The notes: a model not told the origin generated them from the sequence alone. A DNA stretch of 57,093 nt from a virus (IMGVR_UViG_3300030397_000312:1-57093); one strand, 5' to 3'. Positions 1,715-34,327 are shown, numbered from the stretch's first letter. A program made the numbers and translations.

Positions 1715-2127
1715 AATTTACTCCCTATATTTGCATGGTATAATTCACCGTCTGCATGATCCCAATAATTCGCCTTCCACGTTAATCCTGTATTATCTCC
1801 AAATAATTCCGCGTCGTACTCATCAAAACTACATGCCCAGCACGGCTCACATCGTAATACCCCTTTCTGCTGGAGGACGATGTAGAGGAGTGGCACTTTA
1901 CCCACTCCATTTGCTTCTTGCTCCATCTTATCGAGAAGCTTCGTGGTAATGCGATAGTCTAGTCGATTCTCTGAAGACTTCACTTCGATGAGATATTCAT
2001 CGGTGATAACGTCGCCTTTATACCCTGGTCGTGCCCCACTCGCGATGACGACTTCTCCATCTTCGAGCTGGGCGACGAGCTGCTGGGCTTTGTACCAGTA
2101 GCTTTCTTTAGTCTTTCTATTCGGCAT
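1654..2127 (-). CDS. PD-(D/E)XK Holliday junction resolvase-like nuclease
   Basis: ASGA...KGDVITDEYLIEVKS motif. Confidence 0.75.
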   Translation of the reverse strand: MPNRKTKESYWYKAQQLVAQLEDGEVVIASGARPGYKGDVITDEYLIEVKSSENRLDYRITTKLLDKMEQEANGVGKVPLLYIVLQQKGVLRCEPCWACSFDEYDAELFGDNTGLTWKANYWDHADGELYHANIGSKLWAIQMIMGPISAQQIARLL

Positions 2128-2360
2128 AAATCCTCTGGGAATATATGGAGTGGGTGATCTAAATCAAAACCTTCAACTGTAAACTCCGCCCACTCTAAGC
2201 TATAACTCTTATTTGTCTTGATCAGTGTTATCGTCGTCCCCGCTGGAATTATCCCCTTGGTCGTTGATATCGGAGAGGTCAAACGATAGGTCGCCCCACT
2301 GTCCACCGCTGACAGGAAACCACTCTGCGTCATCTTCTTCTTGCGTCTCGGCATTATCAT
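1980..2360 (-). CDS. hypothetical protein
   Basis: ORF with SD, but overlaps both neighbours. Confidence 0.4.
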   Translation of the reverse strand: MIMPRRKKKMTQSGFLSAVDSGATYRLTSPISTTKGIIPAGTTITLIKTNKSYSLEWAEFTVEGFDLDHPLHIFPEDLCRIERLKKATGTKPSSSSPSSKMEKSSSRVGHDQGIKATLSPMNISSK

Positions 2361-5501: not shown

Positions 5502-6093
5502 TCTTTCTCCTCATTCTTTCATGCTGTGCTGCGTAGTCGGTGCGATAATAAAGAATGTGCGAAGCTGAGTAAATCAACTCCCCCATAGAATCATCCCACT
5601 TAATTTCCTTCTCCTCTATACTGCCATCATTTCCAAGTCTTACTAATAATGCACGAGGAATTTCGGCTGCAATCATATATCCATGCATTTGCAAATCATA
5701 GACAGGGTAGAAATCTTGACCCGTCTTCCAATCTATAATACATGGACCTATATCATCCTGTACGATACAATCAATAGTACCAACATAGGGATTCTTTATG
5801 GGCGCAACCATAGAACGCTCAATAAAATCTACCTTATAATTCTGCTTCTCCCACCAGTCTTGCCATGCAGTTAACTGCACAGTATATTCTGGAGGGATAA
5901 TCACCTCTTCGTTTTGCAGAAGCTTCGCGACGCATTCGTGCATCTCCGTCCCACGTCGGGCGGCGTCTTCTGCTCCGTAAAAGCTGCTTGGTTTGATTAC
6001 GTCTAGGACAGTATGTAACGCGGGATAGATAAAACCACGTTCGTCTTTATAGCTACGTAATGTTCGGTAGGTTGTTAACTTGTATGCCATCAA
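5488..6093 (-). CDS. PD-(D/E)XK exonuclease
   Basis: AARRGTEMH, YVGTIDC, IIDWKTG, LQMHGY. Confidence 0.85.
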   Translation of the reverse strand: MMAYKLTTYRTLRSYKDERGFIYPALHTVLDVIKPSSFYGAEDAARRGTEMHECVAKLLQNEEVIIPPEYTVQLTAWQDWWEKQNYKVDFIERSMVAPIKNPYVGTIDCIVQDDIGPCIIDWKTGQDFYPVYDLQMHGYMIAAEIPRALLVRLGNDGSIEEKEIKWDDSMGELIYSASHILYYRTDYAAQHERMRRKNGGK

Positions 6094-6556
6094 TCTTCTC
6101 CAATAGGTATCCTCTCCGCTGGCCGCTACATATTCTTCTCGCTTGAGCTTGGCTTATATCGTATAGCCTCGATAACTGTGCATATGTATAGCGTCCAGTT
6201 CTATATTTACAAATCATCTCTAAAGCTGATTGATCATTCAACTTTGGAGGAACCCCTCCAGCTCGTGCGTGTCTGCCACGCTCCACTGCGTCAATACAAT
6301 TATCCCTCTGGGTTCCTAATAATAAATGCTTTGGATTACAGCATGATCTATTATCACACGAATGTCTTACCACTGTACCATGATATCCTTCGCTTTGAGG
6401 AATTTCCCCGTAAGATAATTCATAAGCCACTCGATGAACACTAACAGATTTACCCGCAATCCTAATCTTACCATAACCACCCGAATTACAGAAACCCTGC
6501 CACTCCCAACATTCATCTTCAGTAGCTTGATTCACCTTATCCCAGAAGCGTTTCAT
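6053..6556 (-). CDS. HNH homing endonuclease
   Basis: RFWDKV..CWEW..GYG..HRVAY..HSCDNRSCCNPKHLLLGTQRDN. Confidence 0.9.
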   Translation of the reverse strand: MKRFWDKVNQATEDECWEWQGFCNSGGYGKIRIAGKSVSVHRVAYELSYGEIPQSEGYHGTVVRHSCDNRSCCNPKHLLLGTQRDNCIDAVERGRHARAGGVPPKLNDQSALEMICKYRTGRYTYAQLSRLYDISQAQARRICSGQRRGYLLEKIDGIQVNNLPNIT

Positions 6557-27345: not shown

Positions 27346-28956
27346 TTAATTATCATCTGCGTCAATGTCAACTTGAATACTATCTCGTTTCCACGCGAGC
27401 GGACCACGATACTTTACGTCAAGCGCAAGTTCATAGAATTCCCCATCATGACCAGTCGCAGGAAAGATCACATCACATGACATGAAGTGTCCCCAATTTG
27501 CATTACTCGTAATTGGAGCAATAACATCTTGAATCTGAAAACTTCCTTTCGTTTCTCCTAATGCAACAAAATCCGCATATGAACTCTCATTATTATCATA
27601 GAGTAAGCCGAGTGAGAGTGCCGACTTCCCGCGATAAATAGCTTTTGCACGATAGGCGCGGCCATACGAATCAGCTTCCCCAATACGAACAAAGGGCACT
27701 TGGATACGAGTATCAATATCCGTCTCTGTTCCGTTATCATCGTCTTTTTCAGGATTACTATTCGCGAAGTCGATCTCACGAATATCCCCTGTCGTATCGC
27801 CGATATACATCGCGCCACCATTCGTATCATCCTCTGCGGGACTATCCGCAATAGCATTGAATGGTAGCCCTGTCCAACGTGCCCAAAGGAATCGCGGCCC
27901 ATCTTGCGTTAACACACGCGAGACAACATATGTGGTATCCGCATCAGAAGGATCAAGTTGAATGATGTACATATCTTTTCGCGTGAAGTAGCATCCGACT
28001 GCACTCGTATAGAGATTCTGTCCACCAGGAGTCACAAATAAGCTACTAATCGGTAATGATAAATCCTGCGACTGCGGGCTTTGCCCATCAGTAATACGCA
28101 ATCCATTACGGCTCAAGTATACGACGCCCCACGGAGTCAACTTAATGGTCTCTGGAGCGATACATCCCTCCGTATTATATCGGACGAACTGCCCGGATGT
28201 GGTGGACCCGAACTCAATATCGCCTAAGAAGCGCCAAATACCAGAAGTTTTAAAAACCAGTAAAGCGTCTCCAATTCCCACAAGGCCAACAATGTCGCCA
28301 CCATCAGGGTCATTGGCAGATAGCTGGTTAAGAGAAGGAAAATTACTATCGGAATTAACGTCCGAAGCATAGACTGAGAAGTTAACATTATCATCATCTA
28401 CTACCCACATCCGCGACTTCCAAACTTCTATATAGGGGCCAATATCATCATTACTCGCGAAGACGCTAGTACTATCTTGCGTAATCGCAGTAATATTACT
28501 CCCGTCGTAGAACTTAATGCCCTCTTTCCCGTTGACCATATAGGTCTTATTTTTCGCGGGCCAGTTCACAAAATGCCAGCGCGTATTCGCAAGATAGCCC
28601 GTTGGACTCCCGCCAAGCGCATCATCAAAAACACCATCCGCATCATTATCGTGGACGAAATCCACATTTCCAGAGGAACTGTTCTGAATCACTGCGAGCC
28701 AGGAAGGACTATTACTCCCCGTATCTCTTGGATAATGTCGCCAGAGTCCTAAGATACTCGATGCATTCGTTGGCTTATCGAGATAACGTATACCTCTCCG
28801 TCCGCGTAATTTGATGGTTTCCCCACCAGACACGTATTCAATATTCTGGGCTTTGAGTAAGGCATTCTCAGGCGTGTAGATATTCAGCGCCCGCGAATCC
28901 CAAAGTCCCCCAGAGAAGTCGTTAAATCTTACAGTTGGGATAAACAATGCCTCCAT
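27346..28956 (-). CDS. tail nozzle / tail tubular protein B (P22 gp10-like)
   Basis: NDFSGGL start, beta-propeller-like pattern, GCIAPETI motif, size and position. Confidence 0.7.
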   Translation of the reverse strand: MEALFIPTVRFNDFSGGLWDSRALNIYTPENALLKAQNIEYVSGGETIKLRGRRGIRYLDKPTNASSILGLWRHYPRDTGSNSPSWLAVIQNSSSGNVDFVHDNDADGVFDDALGGSPTGYLANTRWHFVNWPAKNKTYMVNGKEGIKFYDGSNITAITQDSTSVFASNDDIGPYIEVWKSRMWVVDDDNVNFSVYASDVNSDSNFPSLNQLSANDPDGGDIVGLVGIGDALLVFKTSGIWRFLGDIEFGSTTSGQFVRYNTEGCIAPETIKLTPWGVVYLSRNGLRITDGQSPQSQDLSLPISSLFVTPGGQNLYTSAVGCYFTRKDMYIIQLDPSDADTTYVVSRVLTQDGPRFLWARWTGLPFNAIADSPAEDDTNGGAMYIGDTTGDIREIDFANSNPEKDDDNGTETDIDTRIQVPFVRIGEADSYGRAYRAKAIYRGKSALSLGLLYDNNESSYADFVALGETKGSFQIQDVIAPITSNANWGHFMSCDVIFPATGHDGEFYELALDVKYRGPLAWKRDSIQVDIDADDN

Positions 28957-29418
28957 CGTTTATTATTCACCACACCGGCTATCAACTGATGGCTCACTTT
29001 ATACTTAGTCGCAAGCTTCCTATGTGATGTTAAGCCTTCATTATATTCTTTGCGAATCTCTTTCACATCATTATCTGATAATTTTGCCCTGTTATTTTTC
29101 TCTCCATAAGTGTGTCTTTTTTTTAACAACTTTATCTTCCGTGTTATCTCTATTGGAACCTAAAAATAGATGAGCCGGATTAACACAGTGCCCTATATCA
29201 CACTTATGTAACACATGAAGCCCTTTCGGTATTCGACCTCGATGCAATGTAAATGACAGGCGATGAGCACATATGACCTTACCGTCTCTATTAAGAACGC
29301 CATATCCATGATTACCAAGAGCGGCATCCCATAACCAACAACCATCATCTTGACGTTTAACTTTAGATCAAAAAACGTCCAAGATTGGTTTCTTCTTATA
29401 TTTACGTACAGTTGGCAT
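28929..29418 (-). pseudogene. degenerate HNH endonuclease
   Basis: MPTVRK...VF*SKV..GCWLW..AHRLSF..HKCD..CVNPAHLFLG; TGA at the conserved Trp and an extra A in an A8 run near 29120. Confidence 0.8.
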
Positions 29419-29831
29419 TAGTACCCCGATTGTGCGCTACGTTTCGCCTTACCTTTTAATCTGTCTTTCGTCCCTAATCGTTCGGCTATGCGCCGCTGCT
29501 GAGCAGCTTTAAAATCAGGCTTCACGCCAGTGCGTAGTTGAGGTAAATCTCCAGGCTTTAATCTTCGCGTCGCCTTAAGTAATTCTGGAAAATCTTTCGA
29601 CGCATTCCCAGGCATTTCATGCGTGATTGATCCAGTACCCTTACGAGTGACCTTCGGGCGTGGATTTTTCACCGTATCTTTCGCTTCACTCTTGACCGTC
29701 TTTCGTGCGCCTTTTTTAGCCGCTTTCTTCGCACTCTTCTTGGCGGATTTCTTTCCTAGATGTTTAATTAACTTCTTTAGTCCTACTTTGGCCGCAGCTC
29801 CCGCTGCTCCCATTAGTGCTGGATGTGGCAT
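29418..29831 (-). CDS. Lys-rich histone-H1-like basic protein
   Basis: KKSAKKSAKKAAKKGARK repeats. Confidence 0.65.
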   Translation of the reverse strand: MPHPALMGAAGAAAKVGLKKLIKHLGKKSAKKSAKKAAKKGARKTVKSEAKDTVKNPRPKVTRKGTGSITHEMPGNASKDFPELLKATRRLKPGDLPQLRTGVKPDFKAAQQRRIAERLGTKDRLKGKAKRSAQSGY

Positions 29832-29849
29832 ATTTAACTCGGCAATCTA

Positions 29850-30308
29850 CTATACATGCGTCCAAACCTGACGATGTATAATTCTATTAATAGCCGCTGA
29901 TGTTACGTCATATTTACGTGCTAATTTGGCTTGAGATATATTCCCTTCATCGTATTGATGTCTAATATTGATAATTTGATCTTCATTGAATTTAGACGCA
30001 CCGTTACGGGAACCCCTTGGACCTTTTCCCCTAGCTCGTCCTTTATGAACCATATCCGTCATATTATCATAATGAGTACCTATAGTTAAGTGATCAGGAT
30101 TCACACATGATGGATTGTCGCAACGATGCATAACGTGCATCCCATCAGGGATATCCCCTATTAGATGCTGATATGAATACCTATGCGCTCTATAATTCAC
30201 TCCGTCAGCCTTGAATTTCCCATATCCGCGACTAAGATTTCCCATCCATCTCCAGCAACCTTTGCCGTTAGTATCTATACAAATAAAATTCCAGAAATTA
30301 TCTTTCAT
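29850..30308 (-). CDS. HNH homing endonuclease
   Basis: CWRW..GYG..AHRYSY..HRCDNPSCVNPDHLTIGTHYDN. Confidence 0.9.
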   Translation of the reverse strand: MKDNFWNFICIDTNGKGCWRWMGNLSRGYGKFKADGVNYRAHRYSYQHLIGDIPDGMHVMHRCDNPSCVNPDHLTIGTHYDNMTDMVHKGRARGKGPRGSRNGASKFNEDQIINIRHQYDEGNISQAKLARKYDVTSAAINRIIHRQVWTHV

Positions 30309-30317
30309 AAATATTCT

Positions 30318-30959
30318 CTATGATGGTAATCTTGATCTTAATACCGCGCCCCAAGTCTGAACGAGTGTATCAAGGAATTCTGCGACAGCATTTGTAATTT
30401 GTTCGCGATCTCCCGCGTCTTCATCTGCTTCTTCTGTACTTTCACGCAGCATATTCGCCGCTGTCCGATACATGAGCATCGGATTTAAGTAAGTCATAAC
30501 CGGATCATCATCGTCTGGTCGGATAATACTAAAGACTGTTAAGCCTGAGCTTCCACTCCCTGCGGTATCTGGTGGTGGTACTACAGCGAAGTCAATGAGG
30601 AGGGTGCCAACAACCGAATCCAGACCTTCGGGAATATGGTCCGTAAACCAATATTCCGGCGTGCCGTCAGACTCGCTCTCCCAGGTACTTCGCACCCAAT
30701 CGAGAGTATCAGACGTGGCTTTTCGGAGCACGCCTTGGTTATATAGCACATCCAGGATACGATGTGTCTGTGCGTCCGGGGAATATATGCTCTGACTAAC
30801 GACCGTATCAATCGTCTCTTCCTGGGCAGTGAGGTCGAACTCACGTATGAGTTGGTCCAGTGCGCGTTTATATACTGTTTCAATCTCTTCATCGCGATTC
30901 GCATCCTTGATCCAGAGATAATCTTTGACTAAATCTTTAACATCAGTTGGTATCGGCAT
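30318..30959 (-). CDS. head-tail adaptor / tail ring protein
   Basis: Helical N-terminus, GTPEYW...VVPPPD motif shared with two paralogues. Confidence 0.6.
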   Translation of the reverse strand: MPIPTDVKDLVKDYLWIKDANRDEEIETVYKRALDQLIREFDLTAQEETIDTVVSQSIYSPDAQTHRILDVLYNQGVLRKATSDTLDWVRSTWESESDGTPEYWFTDHIPEGLDSVVGTLLIDFAVVPPPDTAGSGSSGLTVFSIIRPDDDDPVMTYLNPMLMYRTAANMLRESTEEADEDAGDREQITNAVAEFLDTLVQTWGAVLRSRLPS

Positions 30960-32350
30960 TAGTCATTCCCGCTTCTACGTTGATCTACAATCTTATGAGA
31001 TGCGACCTCTTTCTGTACTGGTCCTGGCATAAATCGTCGATCTCGCCGCAATCCTATCGCTTCCATAAACTGCTGCATGAGTCCCTGCACACGCTCGCTA
31101 ATCTTTCCTTCAGAGATGAGTGCGAGAGAGGCAGCATAGAGTGGCAGTAGGTTATGCCATACGGGGTCCACTGAGGGTGGCGCATATTTATCCGTCGCCC
31201 CATCTGGGACTTTCAAGCGTGTCACCTTAGCCGTAAAGCTCGCATTTGGCACGGGATAGAACCCCATTATTGTACCGCCAATCATATAATAGAACTCTGG
31301 CGTTCCAGTCGTTGAGTTCCAATTTGCATCGAGTGCTTGTAAATGTGCAATATGAGATTCTTGTAATGCGACATTATTAATCGCGACTCTGAGTGGCGCG
31401 ATAAAATCCGAGAATGTATTATGTATTTTATAGGTCGCCGTGCCACTCGTAATGGACAGATCGCCTGTTTCCTCTCCTAGTGCGCGATAGATGGTGACAA
31501 ATAATTCCGCTTGCTCTAGGAAGACACGCACTTGCGTCTCTGTATGGAAAAGTCCATCCTCATCATCAATTAATCGCTGCGTTCGCTCAATCAGCGTACT
31601 CCATGACTCTTCCTGTGCACCAAGCAAGTAGAAGTTAATATGATCTGATGCTATAGGATTCATTCCTAATGTAATCACATCGCCAGTATCATCTGAAATA
31701 TATTCTGTTGCTGCCGCGAGATAATCTGTCCGCTCATCAAAGAGCTGACCATTCAGTGTTGTGAGCAATCGCGGCTTATCTCCACTAATCTGCCCTGTCT
31801 TTGTTAAGGTATATGCAGCATTGGTGCCATCCTGCGAGCCAGTAAACGCGAGTGTTGCGGTATTCGTATCTGTTGGGACCGGCAAAAAAGCTTCAATACG
31901 ATCCGTCCGAAATGGCGCTGTCCAGAAGGATATACTATCCGTATCCGTGCCAGTTGTGTACGTTATTTCATTTGCACCTGGTCCAGATGCAACCTCTTCA
32001 CATGCGAGACCATTAAAGAAGATTAGTGCATTCGTACTACTTGGTTTTGCTTTAATCGTAAATGTCTGATTACTATTGTCGATATCGCCAGTCAGTTCTG
32101 TTCTCCGCAGCGACGTGAGAATATTGTCCTGCACAAACGCCCAGAATCCATCTCCTGAATTAGGCGCAAGGCCCACCTCTATAGCTGTTCCCGTAACGGT
32201 ACATTCCCCTACTCCTGGAGTACCTCCGACAACATCGAGGATAAGTCCATTATGAATAATGAGCACTAATCCACCTGTCGCTGGCGTTGTGTCCAACGTA
32301 AAGGAAGTAATTGCTCCATCTGGAGATTCTGAAAAACCAGCCTTAACCAT
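30959..32350 (-). CDS. tail ring protein with three N-terminal beta-sandwich repeats
   Basis: Three repeats G..DG.N..FT....NG; C-terminal adaptor domain GTPEFYY...GFYPVPN. Confidence 0.6.
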   Translation of the reverse strand: MVKAGFSESPDGAITSFTLDTTPATGGLVLIIHNGLILDVVGGTPGVGECTVTGTAIEVGLAPNSGDGFWAFVQDNILTSLRRTELTGDIDNSNQTFTIKAKPSSTNALIFFNGLACEEVASGPGANEITYTTGTDTDSISFWTAPFRTDRIEAFLPVPTDTNTATLAFTGSQDGTNAAYTLTKTGQISGDKPRLLTTLNGQLFDERTDYLAAATEYISDDTGDVITLGMNPIASDHINFYLLGAQEESWSTLIERTQRLIDDEDGLFHTETQVRVFLEQAELFVTIYRALGEETGDLSITSGTATYKIHNTFSDFIAPLRVAINNVALQESHIAHLQALDANWNSTTGTPEFYYMIGGTIMGFYPVPNASFTAKVTRLKVPDGATDKYAPPSVDPVWHNLLPLYAASLALISEGKISERVQGLMQQFMEAIGLRRDRRFMPGPVQKEVASHKIVDQRRSGND

Positions 32351-33412: not shown

Positions 33413-34327
33413 CTATAAGTCCAAAAGCAAGTCGTGACGTGACGCAAAATCGTCACTAACTTCATTACCTCTTTCGCTGTTCCTCTGCGCATGGGGAGCA
33501 CCAAAGGCATTTATATCTCTCATTTGTAATTCTTGCAATGTCGCTATAGATTGCTGCTCCCATTTATCCGCTACCGAGAACCATTTCTGAGCATCTTGTG
33601 GGTCTTTCTCAGCTAAGGCAATGGACATCGCCGCCTGAGCTGCGGTAGATTTAATGAGTACAGTGACAATCATTTCCTCCAAGGTAGTGCTATTAGAAGT
33701 AAGAGCAAACGACAACATCTTCATTCCGACATAATTGAAATGATCCTGTGTATTCGGCACTGGCCACAATTCAATAATCCGTCCGCCACCACTCCCGAAC
33801 CCACTATACGAGTAATAGAGCGGGTCTCCTGAAGATTGCCGCGACTCATCTAAGTCTGCGAGGTCTTCATGGGTGACTTCAATAAGGTCTCGCCCACCTC
33901 CAGAGATGGATATAAGATACCAAACCGCCGGATCAAGCTCGTACCGAGCCTGGTTAAGTGTGTAAGTCTTGCTGGCACCCGTGGTCCCACCATAATTGTA
34001 CTTGAGTGTGCCAGTTGTCGTATTAGTGAATAAGTTAACCCGGTAAAAGTCCGAGTCAACCCGTAGGTATCCATCGTCATAATCACTCGTAAATGCAGTT
34101 GACGCACCCGCGATAGTCTTCGCTGCGTTTGTTAATGTTATCGTACCTCCAGAAAGCTCCGCAAAGGTGTTAAATTCGCCATCTAATTTGGCGAATGACC
34201 ATCCCCACGTATTCGCGAGTTCGCGGTACTGTGTCTCCAAGAGCGCACGAATAGCAGGCCCTTCGAGCTTATGGTGTACCATTGAAAGGATACGCCCTTC
34301 AATCTCTTTAACAGTCAGTCCCCCCAT
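33413..34327 (-). CDS. head-tail adaptor / tail tubular protein A-like
   Basis: WGWSFA, SGDPLYY...IELWPVPN; inserted GTITLTN..IAGASTAFTS domain. Confidence 0.65.
   Translation of the reverse strand: MGGLTVKEIEGRILSMVHHKLEGPAIRALLETQYRELANTWGWSFAKLDGEFNTFAELSGGTITLTNAAKTIAGASTAFTSDYDDGYLRVDSDFYRVNLFTNTTTGTLKYNYGGTTGASKTYTLNQARYELDPAVWYLISISGGGRDLIEVTHEDLADLDESRQSSGDPLYYSYSGFGSGGGRIIELWPVPNTQDHFNYVGMKMLSFALTSNSTTLEEMIVTVLIKSTAAQAAMSIALAEKDPQDAQKWFSVADKWEQQSIATLQELQMRDINAFGAPHAQRNSERGNEVSDDFASRHDLLLDL

Follow-up and report, generated by a model that had tools for sequence, protein, structure and literature searches.

A virus record of 57,093 bases (IMGVR_UViG_3300030397_000312:1-57093; estimated completeness 74%), the whole of which we call the window, carries a gene for a podovirus head-to-tail adaptor, as identified by predicted fold, that ends in the peptide SRLPS followed by a stop codon. 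The same five residues and stop are encoded a second time, in different codons, on the far side of the HNH endonuclease gene that follows it. From this arrangement and the evidence set out below, we hypothesize that the endonuclease gene, which we term HNH-1, is probably a free-standing homing endonuclease gene that entered together with a replacement 3' end for the adaptor gene, leaving the former end behind as a relic. A second, decayed HNH gene in the same locus appears to have done the equivalent to the next structural gene, at its 5' end.

The end of the adaptor gene is encoded twice

The adaptor gene (30318..30959, called the ring gene in the initial annotation of the window) is a 213-residue open reading frame (ORF); this gene, HNH-1 and the other genes of the locus described below (the HNH-2, basic protein and 536-residue protein genes) are all minus-strand readings. 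Its SRLPS-stop is spelled TCA AGA TTA CCA TCA TAG (30335..30318) and belongs to what we take to be the replacement 3' end now in use (30318..30344), which comprises the last eight sense codons, VLRSRLPS, and the TAG. A spacer of 9 nucleotides (nt; 30309..30317) without a Shine-Dalgarno motif separates this stop from the start of HNH-1 (29850..30308), an intact free-standing HNH endonuclease gene of 152 codons. The second copy, the putative stranded former 3' end of the adaptor gene, reads AGT AGA TTG CCG AGT TAA (29834..29851) and overlaps the TAG stop of HNH-1 (29852..29850) by 2 nt. Its TAA is followed by AT and then by the ATG (29831) of the next gene (29418..29831), which encodes a Lys/Ala-rich basic protein of 137 residues (the "H1-like" gene of the initial annotation) with no Pfam or PHROG match. 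This gene lies between the two relics that we describe.

The two copies are identical at 9 of 18 bases and at all six codon meanings; five of the six codons differ, AGA being the only one in common, and both serines are TCA in one copy and AGT in the other. Direct sequence comparison therefore bears out what the initial annotation had reported, namely that SRLPS-stop is encoded twice around an HNH gene with 9/18 nucleotide identity and that both serines switch between the TCN and AGY codon boxes. Its placement of the downstream copy 2 nt before the next ATG also holds, while its statement that the copy lies just past the HNH stop has to be amended, given the 2-nt overlap with that stop.

The duplication is real, and chance fails to explain it. 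From the trinucleotide composition of the window, the probability of SRLPS-stop is 1.7e-7 per position. Among the 58 ORFs, compared with the 114,182 six-frame positions of the window, it is the only C-terminal word of five residues plus stop that recurs, and the recurrence falls exactly between the stop of HNH-1 and the next start. Contigs assembled from two of four public runs span the adaptor end, HNH-1 and the second copy with zero differences, and in a third run the stretch is covered by two overlapping pieces. We stress that the bridging contigs are not independent support, because all of the runs come from one study, which is possibly the source of the window. No contig joint that skips HNH-1 or HNH-2 was found between 28700 and 31000 in the contigs of the four runs of this study; since contigs drop rare variants, this result says nothing on the absence of HNH-free variants.

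The host gene is a structural gene with a conserved tail

An AlphaFold model of the 213-residue protein (pLDDT 89.3, pTM 0.78) matched 13 PDB chains at E<=0.001 in Foldseek, all of them from podovirus portal-tail, tail or adaptor assemblies (GP4, SU10, VP1, Pa223, cyanophage A4, KHP30, B2, N4 and PhiM1). The best match was GP4 (8jov_G; E 2.8e-7, TM 0.64), with SU10 (7z47_A) at 4.7e-6, and the T7 adaptor gp11 (7box_N) scored 8.6e-3. At the sequence level the protein matches PHROG 399, structural protein, at 7.5e-5; no Pfam family was found at E<=0.01, SU10_adaptor (PF24175) included, and SU10_adaptor is the Pfam family on record for its 62% identical relative (P0002). By the fold of the model, the host gene product is a podovirus head-to-tail adaptor. 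Two proteins with SU10_adaptor matches precede it in the operon, of 304 residues (33413..34327) and 463 residues (30959..32350), both on the minus strand; compared with the neighbouring 463-residue protein, the 213-residue family gave an hhalign probability of 7%, which is not significant.

A search of 5.8 billion clustered proteins returned just two close relatives of the adaptor, 62% and 59% identical, both 213 residues long and ending in KTRVPS and KSRVPS, respectively. An exhaustive profile search yielded 39 proteins, and in the alignment of 35 of these Arg 210 is present in 22, a hydrophobic residue at position 211 in 32 and Pro 212 in 18. Judged from this alignment, an R-hydrophobic-P tail is the conserved C terminus of the adaptor family. 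The initial annotation had proposed that the downstream copy is the displaced original 3' end and had named, as grounds for abandoning this, homologues that do not end in an SRLPS-like peptide; with the tail conserved in the family, these grounds do not arise.

HNH-1 is an intact free-standing endonuclease gene

HNH-1 matches Pfam HNH_3 (PF13392) at 5.3e-11 (42.4 bits, cutoff 24.8), and its best family match is PHROG 6254, HNH endonuclease (1.2e-31). Residues 100-147 match PHROG 517, annotated as "HTH DNA binding protein" (2.8e-5); the Pfam families MarR and Mor stay below their cutoffs. Relatives were found in 1208 phage records at E<=1e-10, every one of them below 60% identity; matches covering most of the protein are at most 49% identical, and short partial matches reach 61%. 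There was no sequence match in the PDB. The GC fraction is 0.39 for HNH-1, 0.38 for HNH-2 and 0.46-0.48 for the neighbouring genes.

The protein ends in VWTHV, and a W.H[VILC] motif is present in the last 10 residues of 51 of 119 homologues. The end is thus typical of the family, and the ORF is therefore complete up to its junction with the relic. We also considered a likeness between QVWTHV at the end of HNH-1 and residues 201-206 of the adaptor (QTWGAV), and set it aside on account of these 51 homologues; by a hand count, the last six codons of HNH-1 (29853..29870) agree with adaptor positions 30342..30359 at 10 of 18 bases. The likeness probably reflects chance plus the family-typical HNH end; it could be a microhomology used at the join.

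HNH-1 is not borne by an intron or an intein, as the relic begins at its stop and a 9-nt gap lies upstream. A group I intron or intein was rejected on the grounds that the window has no Rfam matches, that the 9-nt gap is present and that the host gene is complete without splicing. As for expression, no promoter or terminator belonging to the HNH genes was detected between 28700 and 31100, where four promoter-like sites were counted against 5.7 expected, and no terminator-like site. The phage uses Shine-Dalgarno motifs widely, and the ATG of HNH-1, 9 nt past the adaptor stop, has none. HNH-1 is probably expressed weakly, through re-initiation downstream of the adaptor stop; several of the free-standing endonuclease genes of T4-type phages are likewise made by re-initiation, according to the relevant parts of PMC2988022.

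Intactness and codon choice mark the downstream copy as the likely native end

The downstream copy lies in no ORF, yet its five sense codons and its stop are intact. Under simulated random substitution, the peptide and stop of the relic were kept in 20%, 4% and 0.8% of cases after one, two and three hits, respectively. A sequence that is untranslated yet intact is therefore best read as a recently stranded, formerly selected gene end. If it has barely changed, the nine differences between the copies either predate the event or sit in the copy that is under selection. When SRLPS-stop was spelled independently from the codon usage of the phage, identity was 9/18 or lower in 20.5% of 200,000 trials (median 11); the pair is thus as unlike as unrelated spellings, which would fit two separately evolved gene ends.

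In its codon choice, the copy in use looks foreign to the adaptor gene and HNH-like. A stands at the third position of each of its last eight sense codons (30344..30321). Codons 208 and 210 are the only AGA codons of the adaptor gene, whose 10 further Arg codons are CGN. The share of AGA among Arg codons is 9% in the phage ORFs and 38% in the HNH genes. Over the five codons, the copy in use scores -3.9 and the relic +0.9 in the log2 ratio of codon preference, host to HNH.

Several observations weigh against taking the downstream copy as native. The relic contains AGA too, at least eight A-ending codons in a row occur three times among 17,513 codons, and a tract of five codons is very short. 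Furthermore, no closely related HNH-free genome was found in our searches, and neither copy was seen joined to the basic protein gene. The sole related locus retrieved for the adaptor is a 9-kb metagenome contig (L001), whose adaptor gene ends ACG AGG GTT CCA TCA TAA, followed by 12 nt and then the next gene; this end shares 12 of 18 bases with the copy in use and 9 of 18 with the downstream copy. However, third codon positions of the window and L001 adaptor genes are only 32% identical and so saturated, and L001 therefore cannot tell which spelling is native.

The comparison with HNH-free homologues that the initial annotation had suggested has thus yielded one such locus, which does not decide the spelling. 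No HNH match was found behind the L001 adaptor gene or anywhere in its 7826 bases, and so the HNH gene at the adaptor site is present in the window and absent from this one relative, at 62% protein identity. A downstream copy standing without the HNH gene, which the initial annotation had listed as contrary evidence, was not seen in L001. As no close HNH-free relative was found, the native version is one that we infer. With this proviso, the proposal that the downstream copy is the displaced original 3' end is supported, not proven, by the family tail, the intact relic, the codon bias and the mirror case described below.

Further searches for relatives were negative. No adaptor relatives were found in phage records by tblastn, or in IMG/VR with either the single protein or a three-sequence alignment, and queries with the 536-residue and 463-residue proteins retrieved no related loci from IMG/VR. 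An alignment of 11 sequences of the 536-residue family did retrieve three distant loci from IMG/VR (L006-L008), which are uninformative because no adaptor or HNH homologue was detectable in them by profile search. The exact 27-nt pattern across the relic and the next start occurs in no other IMG/VR contig.

We also observed that the single basic protein gene of the window corresponds in L001 (2842..5112) to a row of small basic protein genes. Several of the encoded proteins start with MPI(G/S)K and end with PRGKGYKPK, that is, they form a paralogous array, and the segment from the adaptor gene to the 536-residue gene is therefore highly variable. In addition, an ORF of 112 residues without a Pfam match (1878..2216) lies in L001 between the 464-residue adaptor-like gene and the 213-residue adaptor gene, the window counterparts of which overlap (TAATG).

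A probable mirror-image case at the start of the 536-residue gene

A search within the record itself identified two further HNH genes, HNH-2 and HNH-3. HNH-2 (28929..29403), recognized by this search, by Pfam and by alignment with HNH-1 and HNH-3, is decayed: its reading frame is interrupted by a TGA (29370..29368) at a position where its relatives carry Trp, a frameshift lies at or near a run of eight A residues (29124..29117), and the gene matches Pfam HNH_3 at 1e-11 when the TGA is read through. Decoding of TGA as Trp by the organism was considered and is unlikely, as 9 of 58 ORFs end in TGA. Downstream of HNH-2 lies a structural gene encoding 536 residues (27346..28956), for which there are 31 homologues and weak PHROG matches only.

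Immediately upstream of HNH-2 lies the candidate second relic, the former start of the 536-residue gene (29404..29418), which reads ATG CCA ACT GTA CGT (MPTVR). The basic protein gene stops within a TAATG that also supplies this ATG, and the relic continues in frame into HNH-2, whose ORF has about 11 extra N-terminal residues relative to HNH-1 and HNH-3. The predicted 536-residue protein now starts MEALF-IPTVRFNDF, from a putative new 5' end (28927..28956) in which the five MEALF codons, extra codons drawn from the 3' end of HNH-2, are followed by ATC CCA ACT GTA AGA (IPTVR, 28941..28927), with ATC at the old start position. The closest homologues begin with MPTLRFNDF (74% identical) and MSVLRFNDF (73%), and the L001 homologue starts ATG CCG ACT TTG CGC (MPTLR), with the same TAATG overlap, taken to be the ancestral junction, and a CGN codon for Arg. 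In the MPTVR relic Arg is the host-typical CGT, and in the IPTVR copy in use it is AGA, as at HNH-1. Relative to the L001 start, the relic agrees at 11 of 15 bases and the copy in use at 9 of 15; the two copies flanking HNH-2 are identical to each other at 12 of 15 bases, including nine in a row.

From these observations we infer that HNH-2, before its decay, made the mirror-image insertion at the 5' end of the gene for the 536-residue protein. Two points count against this second case: the likeness of the PTVR codons, at 10 of 12 bases, does not exceed that of independent spellings (24% of draws), and the window often shows matches of four residues, of which 14 were found. The mirror case therefore rests on the exact position of the match.

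The first ATG of the 536-residue gene (28956) has no Shine-Dalgarno motif, and a GGAGG inside the 3' end of HNH-2 precedes a TTG (28947) by 2 nt and the ATC (28941) by 8 nt. The third gene of the HNH_3 family, HNH-3 (6053..6556, minus strand; 167 residues, Pfam 8.5e-12), is situated between genes for a phage lysozyme and a PD-(D/E)XK-like nuclease, overlapping the former by ATGA and the latter by about 40 nt; its flanks showed no duplicated peptide.

In one run (X2) the assembly graph forks at 28892..28921 and 29431..29460, the two flanks of HNH-2, and side contigs of 760 and 650 nt run on into unlike sequence, as seen in 30 letters of each branch. It seems that another genome in the sample shares the HNH-2 segment, not its surroundings. 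In another run (X1), a side contig of 2480 nt matches the basic protein gene over 30 nt (29720..29749) and, from there towards HNH-1, continues as diverging sequence that does not encode the basic protein in frame.

Proposed mechanism and alternatives

In the scenario that we favour, the HNH-1 element would have come from a related phage by break repair, with the donor's version of the end of the adaptor gene attached upstream of it. One crossover, on the upstream side, would lie inside the adaptor gene and the downstream join just before codon 209 of the recipient, whose last five codons and stop would have been stranded behind HNH-1, still 2 nt from the next ATG. By analogy with the WHO elements of yeasts discussed below, the nuclease would cut nuclease-free alleles across the insertion point; following the WHO-element model, the respelled tail would render the carrier uncuttable while the R-L-P adaptor tail is kept.

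The alternative that survives best, which we nonetheless regard as unlikely, is that the 18-nt target was duplicated in place, through a staggered break or template switch, and that the copy in use was later respelled under selection, the reason for respelling being either escape from cutting or a block to deletion between direct repeats. The flanks of HNH-2, which are direct-repeat-like in their 12/15 identity and nine bases in a row, agree with such an origin, and the AGATT common to the two HNH-1 copies could be a remnant of it. However, duplication in place would need nine changes in the working copy, among them two serine box switches that call for non-synonymous intermediates or double hits, while the unselected copy stayed intact and the HNH ORF whole. 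A pair as unlike as unrelated spellings is also not what this origin would lead one to expect. Moreover, we know of no HNH enzyme that makes staggered cuts of 15-18 nt, which we count as a further argument against it.

We consider it less probable still that the downstream copy is kept for a function of its own, either as a native leader that couples translation of the basic protein or as a homology arm for homing. The preserved TAA-AT-ATG junction and the lack of a Shine-Dalgarno motif at the basic protein gene would suit a leader, and the WHO model, as set out in the pertinent passages of PMC7282813, counts the fragment as part of the element. Against this, the copy is not translated in its own frame; the HNH-1 ORF closes with TAG TAG in a different frame, and classical termination-reinitiation at the TAA of the relic is therefore impossible. 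Likewise, 18 nt is short for a homology arm. A functional copy is in any case compatible with an origin as a relic and would only explain why it has been kept.

Chance resemblance or an assembly chimera we regard as highly improbable: the window does contain chance peptide matches (VATLLA of six residues and several of four to five), but none of this accounts for a word with the per-position probability given above that recurs exactly at the junction of HNH stop and next start, as the sole repeated C-terminal word among 58 ORFs, with a second, independent case 400 nt away, and contigs of two runs bridge the whole arrangement without differences.

Comparison with known homing elements

Arrangements of the kind that we propose for HNH-1 have been described outside phages. 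The fungal mitochondrial mORF gene hybrids involve atp6, atp9, cox2 and nad3 in Glomus (Beaudet et al. 2013; PMC3630166) and atp6 in Allomyces macrogynus, as cited in the same paper, and similar duplications are noted in Endoconidiophora in the corresponding part of PMC6279837. In the passages of PMC3630166 that treat mORFs, the explanation given is that the nuclease gene was transferred together with the donor's gene end. Their layout, as described there, is that of HNH-1: a host gene with an inserted C-terminal part, an endonuclease ORF, and the native C-terminal part stranded downstream. A further likeness is that the two versions encode near-identical protein in widely diverged DNA, with 64-81% identity there and 50% over 18 nt here. 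The differences are that the nucleases are LAGLIDADG or GIY-YIG enzymes (HNH here); that the duplications measure tens to hundreds of bases (18 here); that the native copy was shown to match close relatives, whereas here no close relative was found; and that the host is an organelle genome rather than a phage. The mORF passages of that paper contain no 5'-end mirror form.

In Torulaspora and Lachancea yeasts, WHO elements replace the 3' end of the aldolase gene FBA1 whenever they home, leaving behind old ends and nuclease genes in decay (Coughlan et al. 2020, eLife; PMC7282813). As the relevant passages present it, the functional unit is a nuclease gene plus a gene end that confers resistance, and the older nuclease copies are pseudogenes, a likeness shared by our locus. 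The WHO proteins, however, are intein-like LAGLIDADG proteins with zinc fingers, whereas here the nuclease is of the HNH_3 family; the replaced WHO tract is about 400 nt at 85% identity; and their cutting and allele specificity were shown experimentally, whereas those proposed here are predictions. Since the nuclease is HNH_3, the element described here would work like the mORF and WHO elements and is not their homologue.

Among phage genes, HNH-1 resembles the seg and mob genes of T4-type phages, which take part in intron-less homing and are likewise free-standing between conserved phage genes (PMC2988022), and the homing endonuclease genes of ICP1 phages, which lie at boundaries of genetic exchange (PMC10448857). 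As far as the pertinent parts of these two papers describe them, such genes share with HNH-1 the lack of a translation initiation region of their own and a position adjoining or overlapping the stop of the upstream gene. They also share with our locus presence or absence among relatives, a place beside essential structural genes, and decayed copies. In full-text searches of the open literature and in the pertinent parts of those two phage papers, we found no account of a respelled duplicated gene end beside a free-standing nuclease gene, nor did we find the 5'-end mirror form described within the same scope.

Implications

We regard the finding as a compact and clear-cut phage instance of a selfish element of known type, with an added 5' form; this interpretation is supported, not proven, as no close nuclease-free relative was found. 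It would carry a mechanism known from the mitochondria of fungi and the nuclei of yeasts over to HNH elements of a structural operon in a phage, with a 5' counterpart in the same locus, and to our knowledge at the smallest scale of gene-end replacement. The stranded 18 nt and the codons before 209 may also point to a candidate cleavage site of an uncharacterised HNH enzyme. For annotators, it means that the terminal codons of a gene adjoining such an endonuclease gene may be foreign, and that a neighbouring gene can acquire a short terminal extension, such as MEALF here, as a by-product of insertion.

More generally, and with confidence that falls a little short of even, we suggest that phage HNH homing endonucleases may spread by gene-end replacement in the manner of the yeast WHO elements, using immunity patches of only 5-8 respelled codons, whether at the 3' or the 5' end of a gene. 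In the 3' form, the element would bring a new tail and stop; in the 5' form, as at HNH-2, the nuclease ORF would take over the host start and first five codons and give a new start from its own 3' end. If this is true, homing elements would directly give rise to synonymous respelling and to terminal extensions in structural genes that are essential to phages, and candidate target sites could be read from stranded gene ends by sequence alone.

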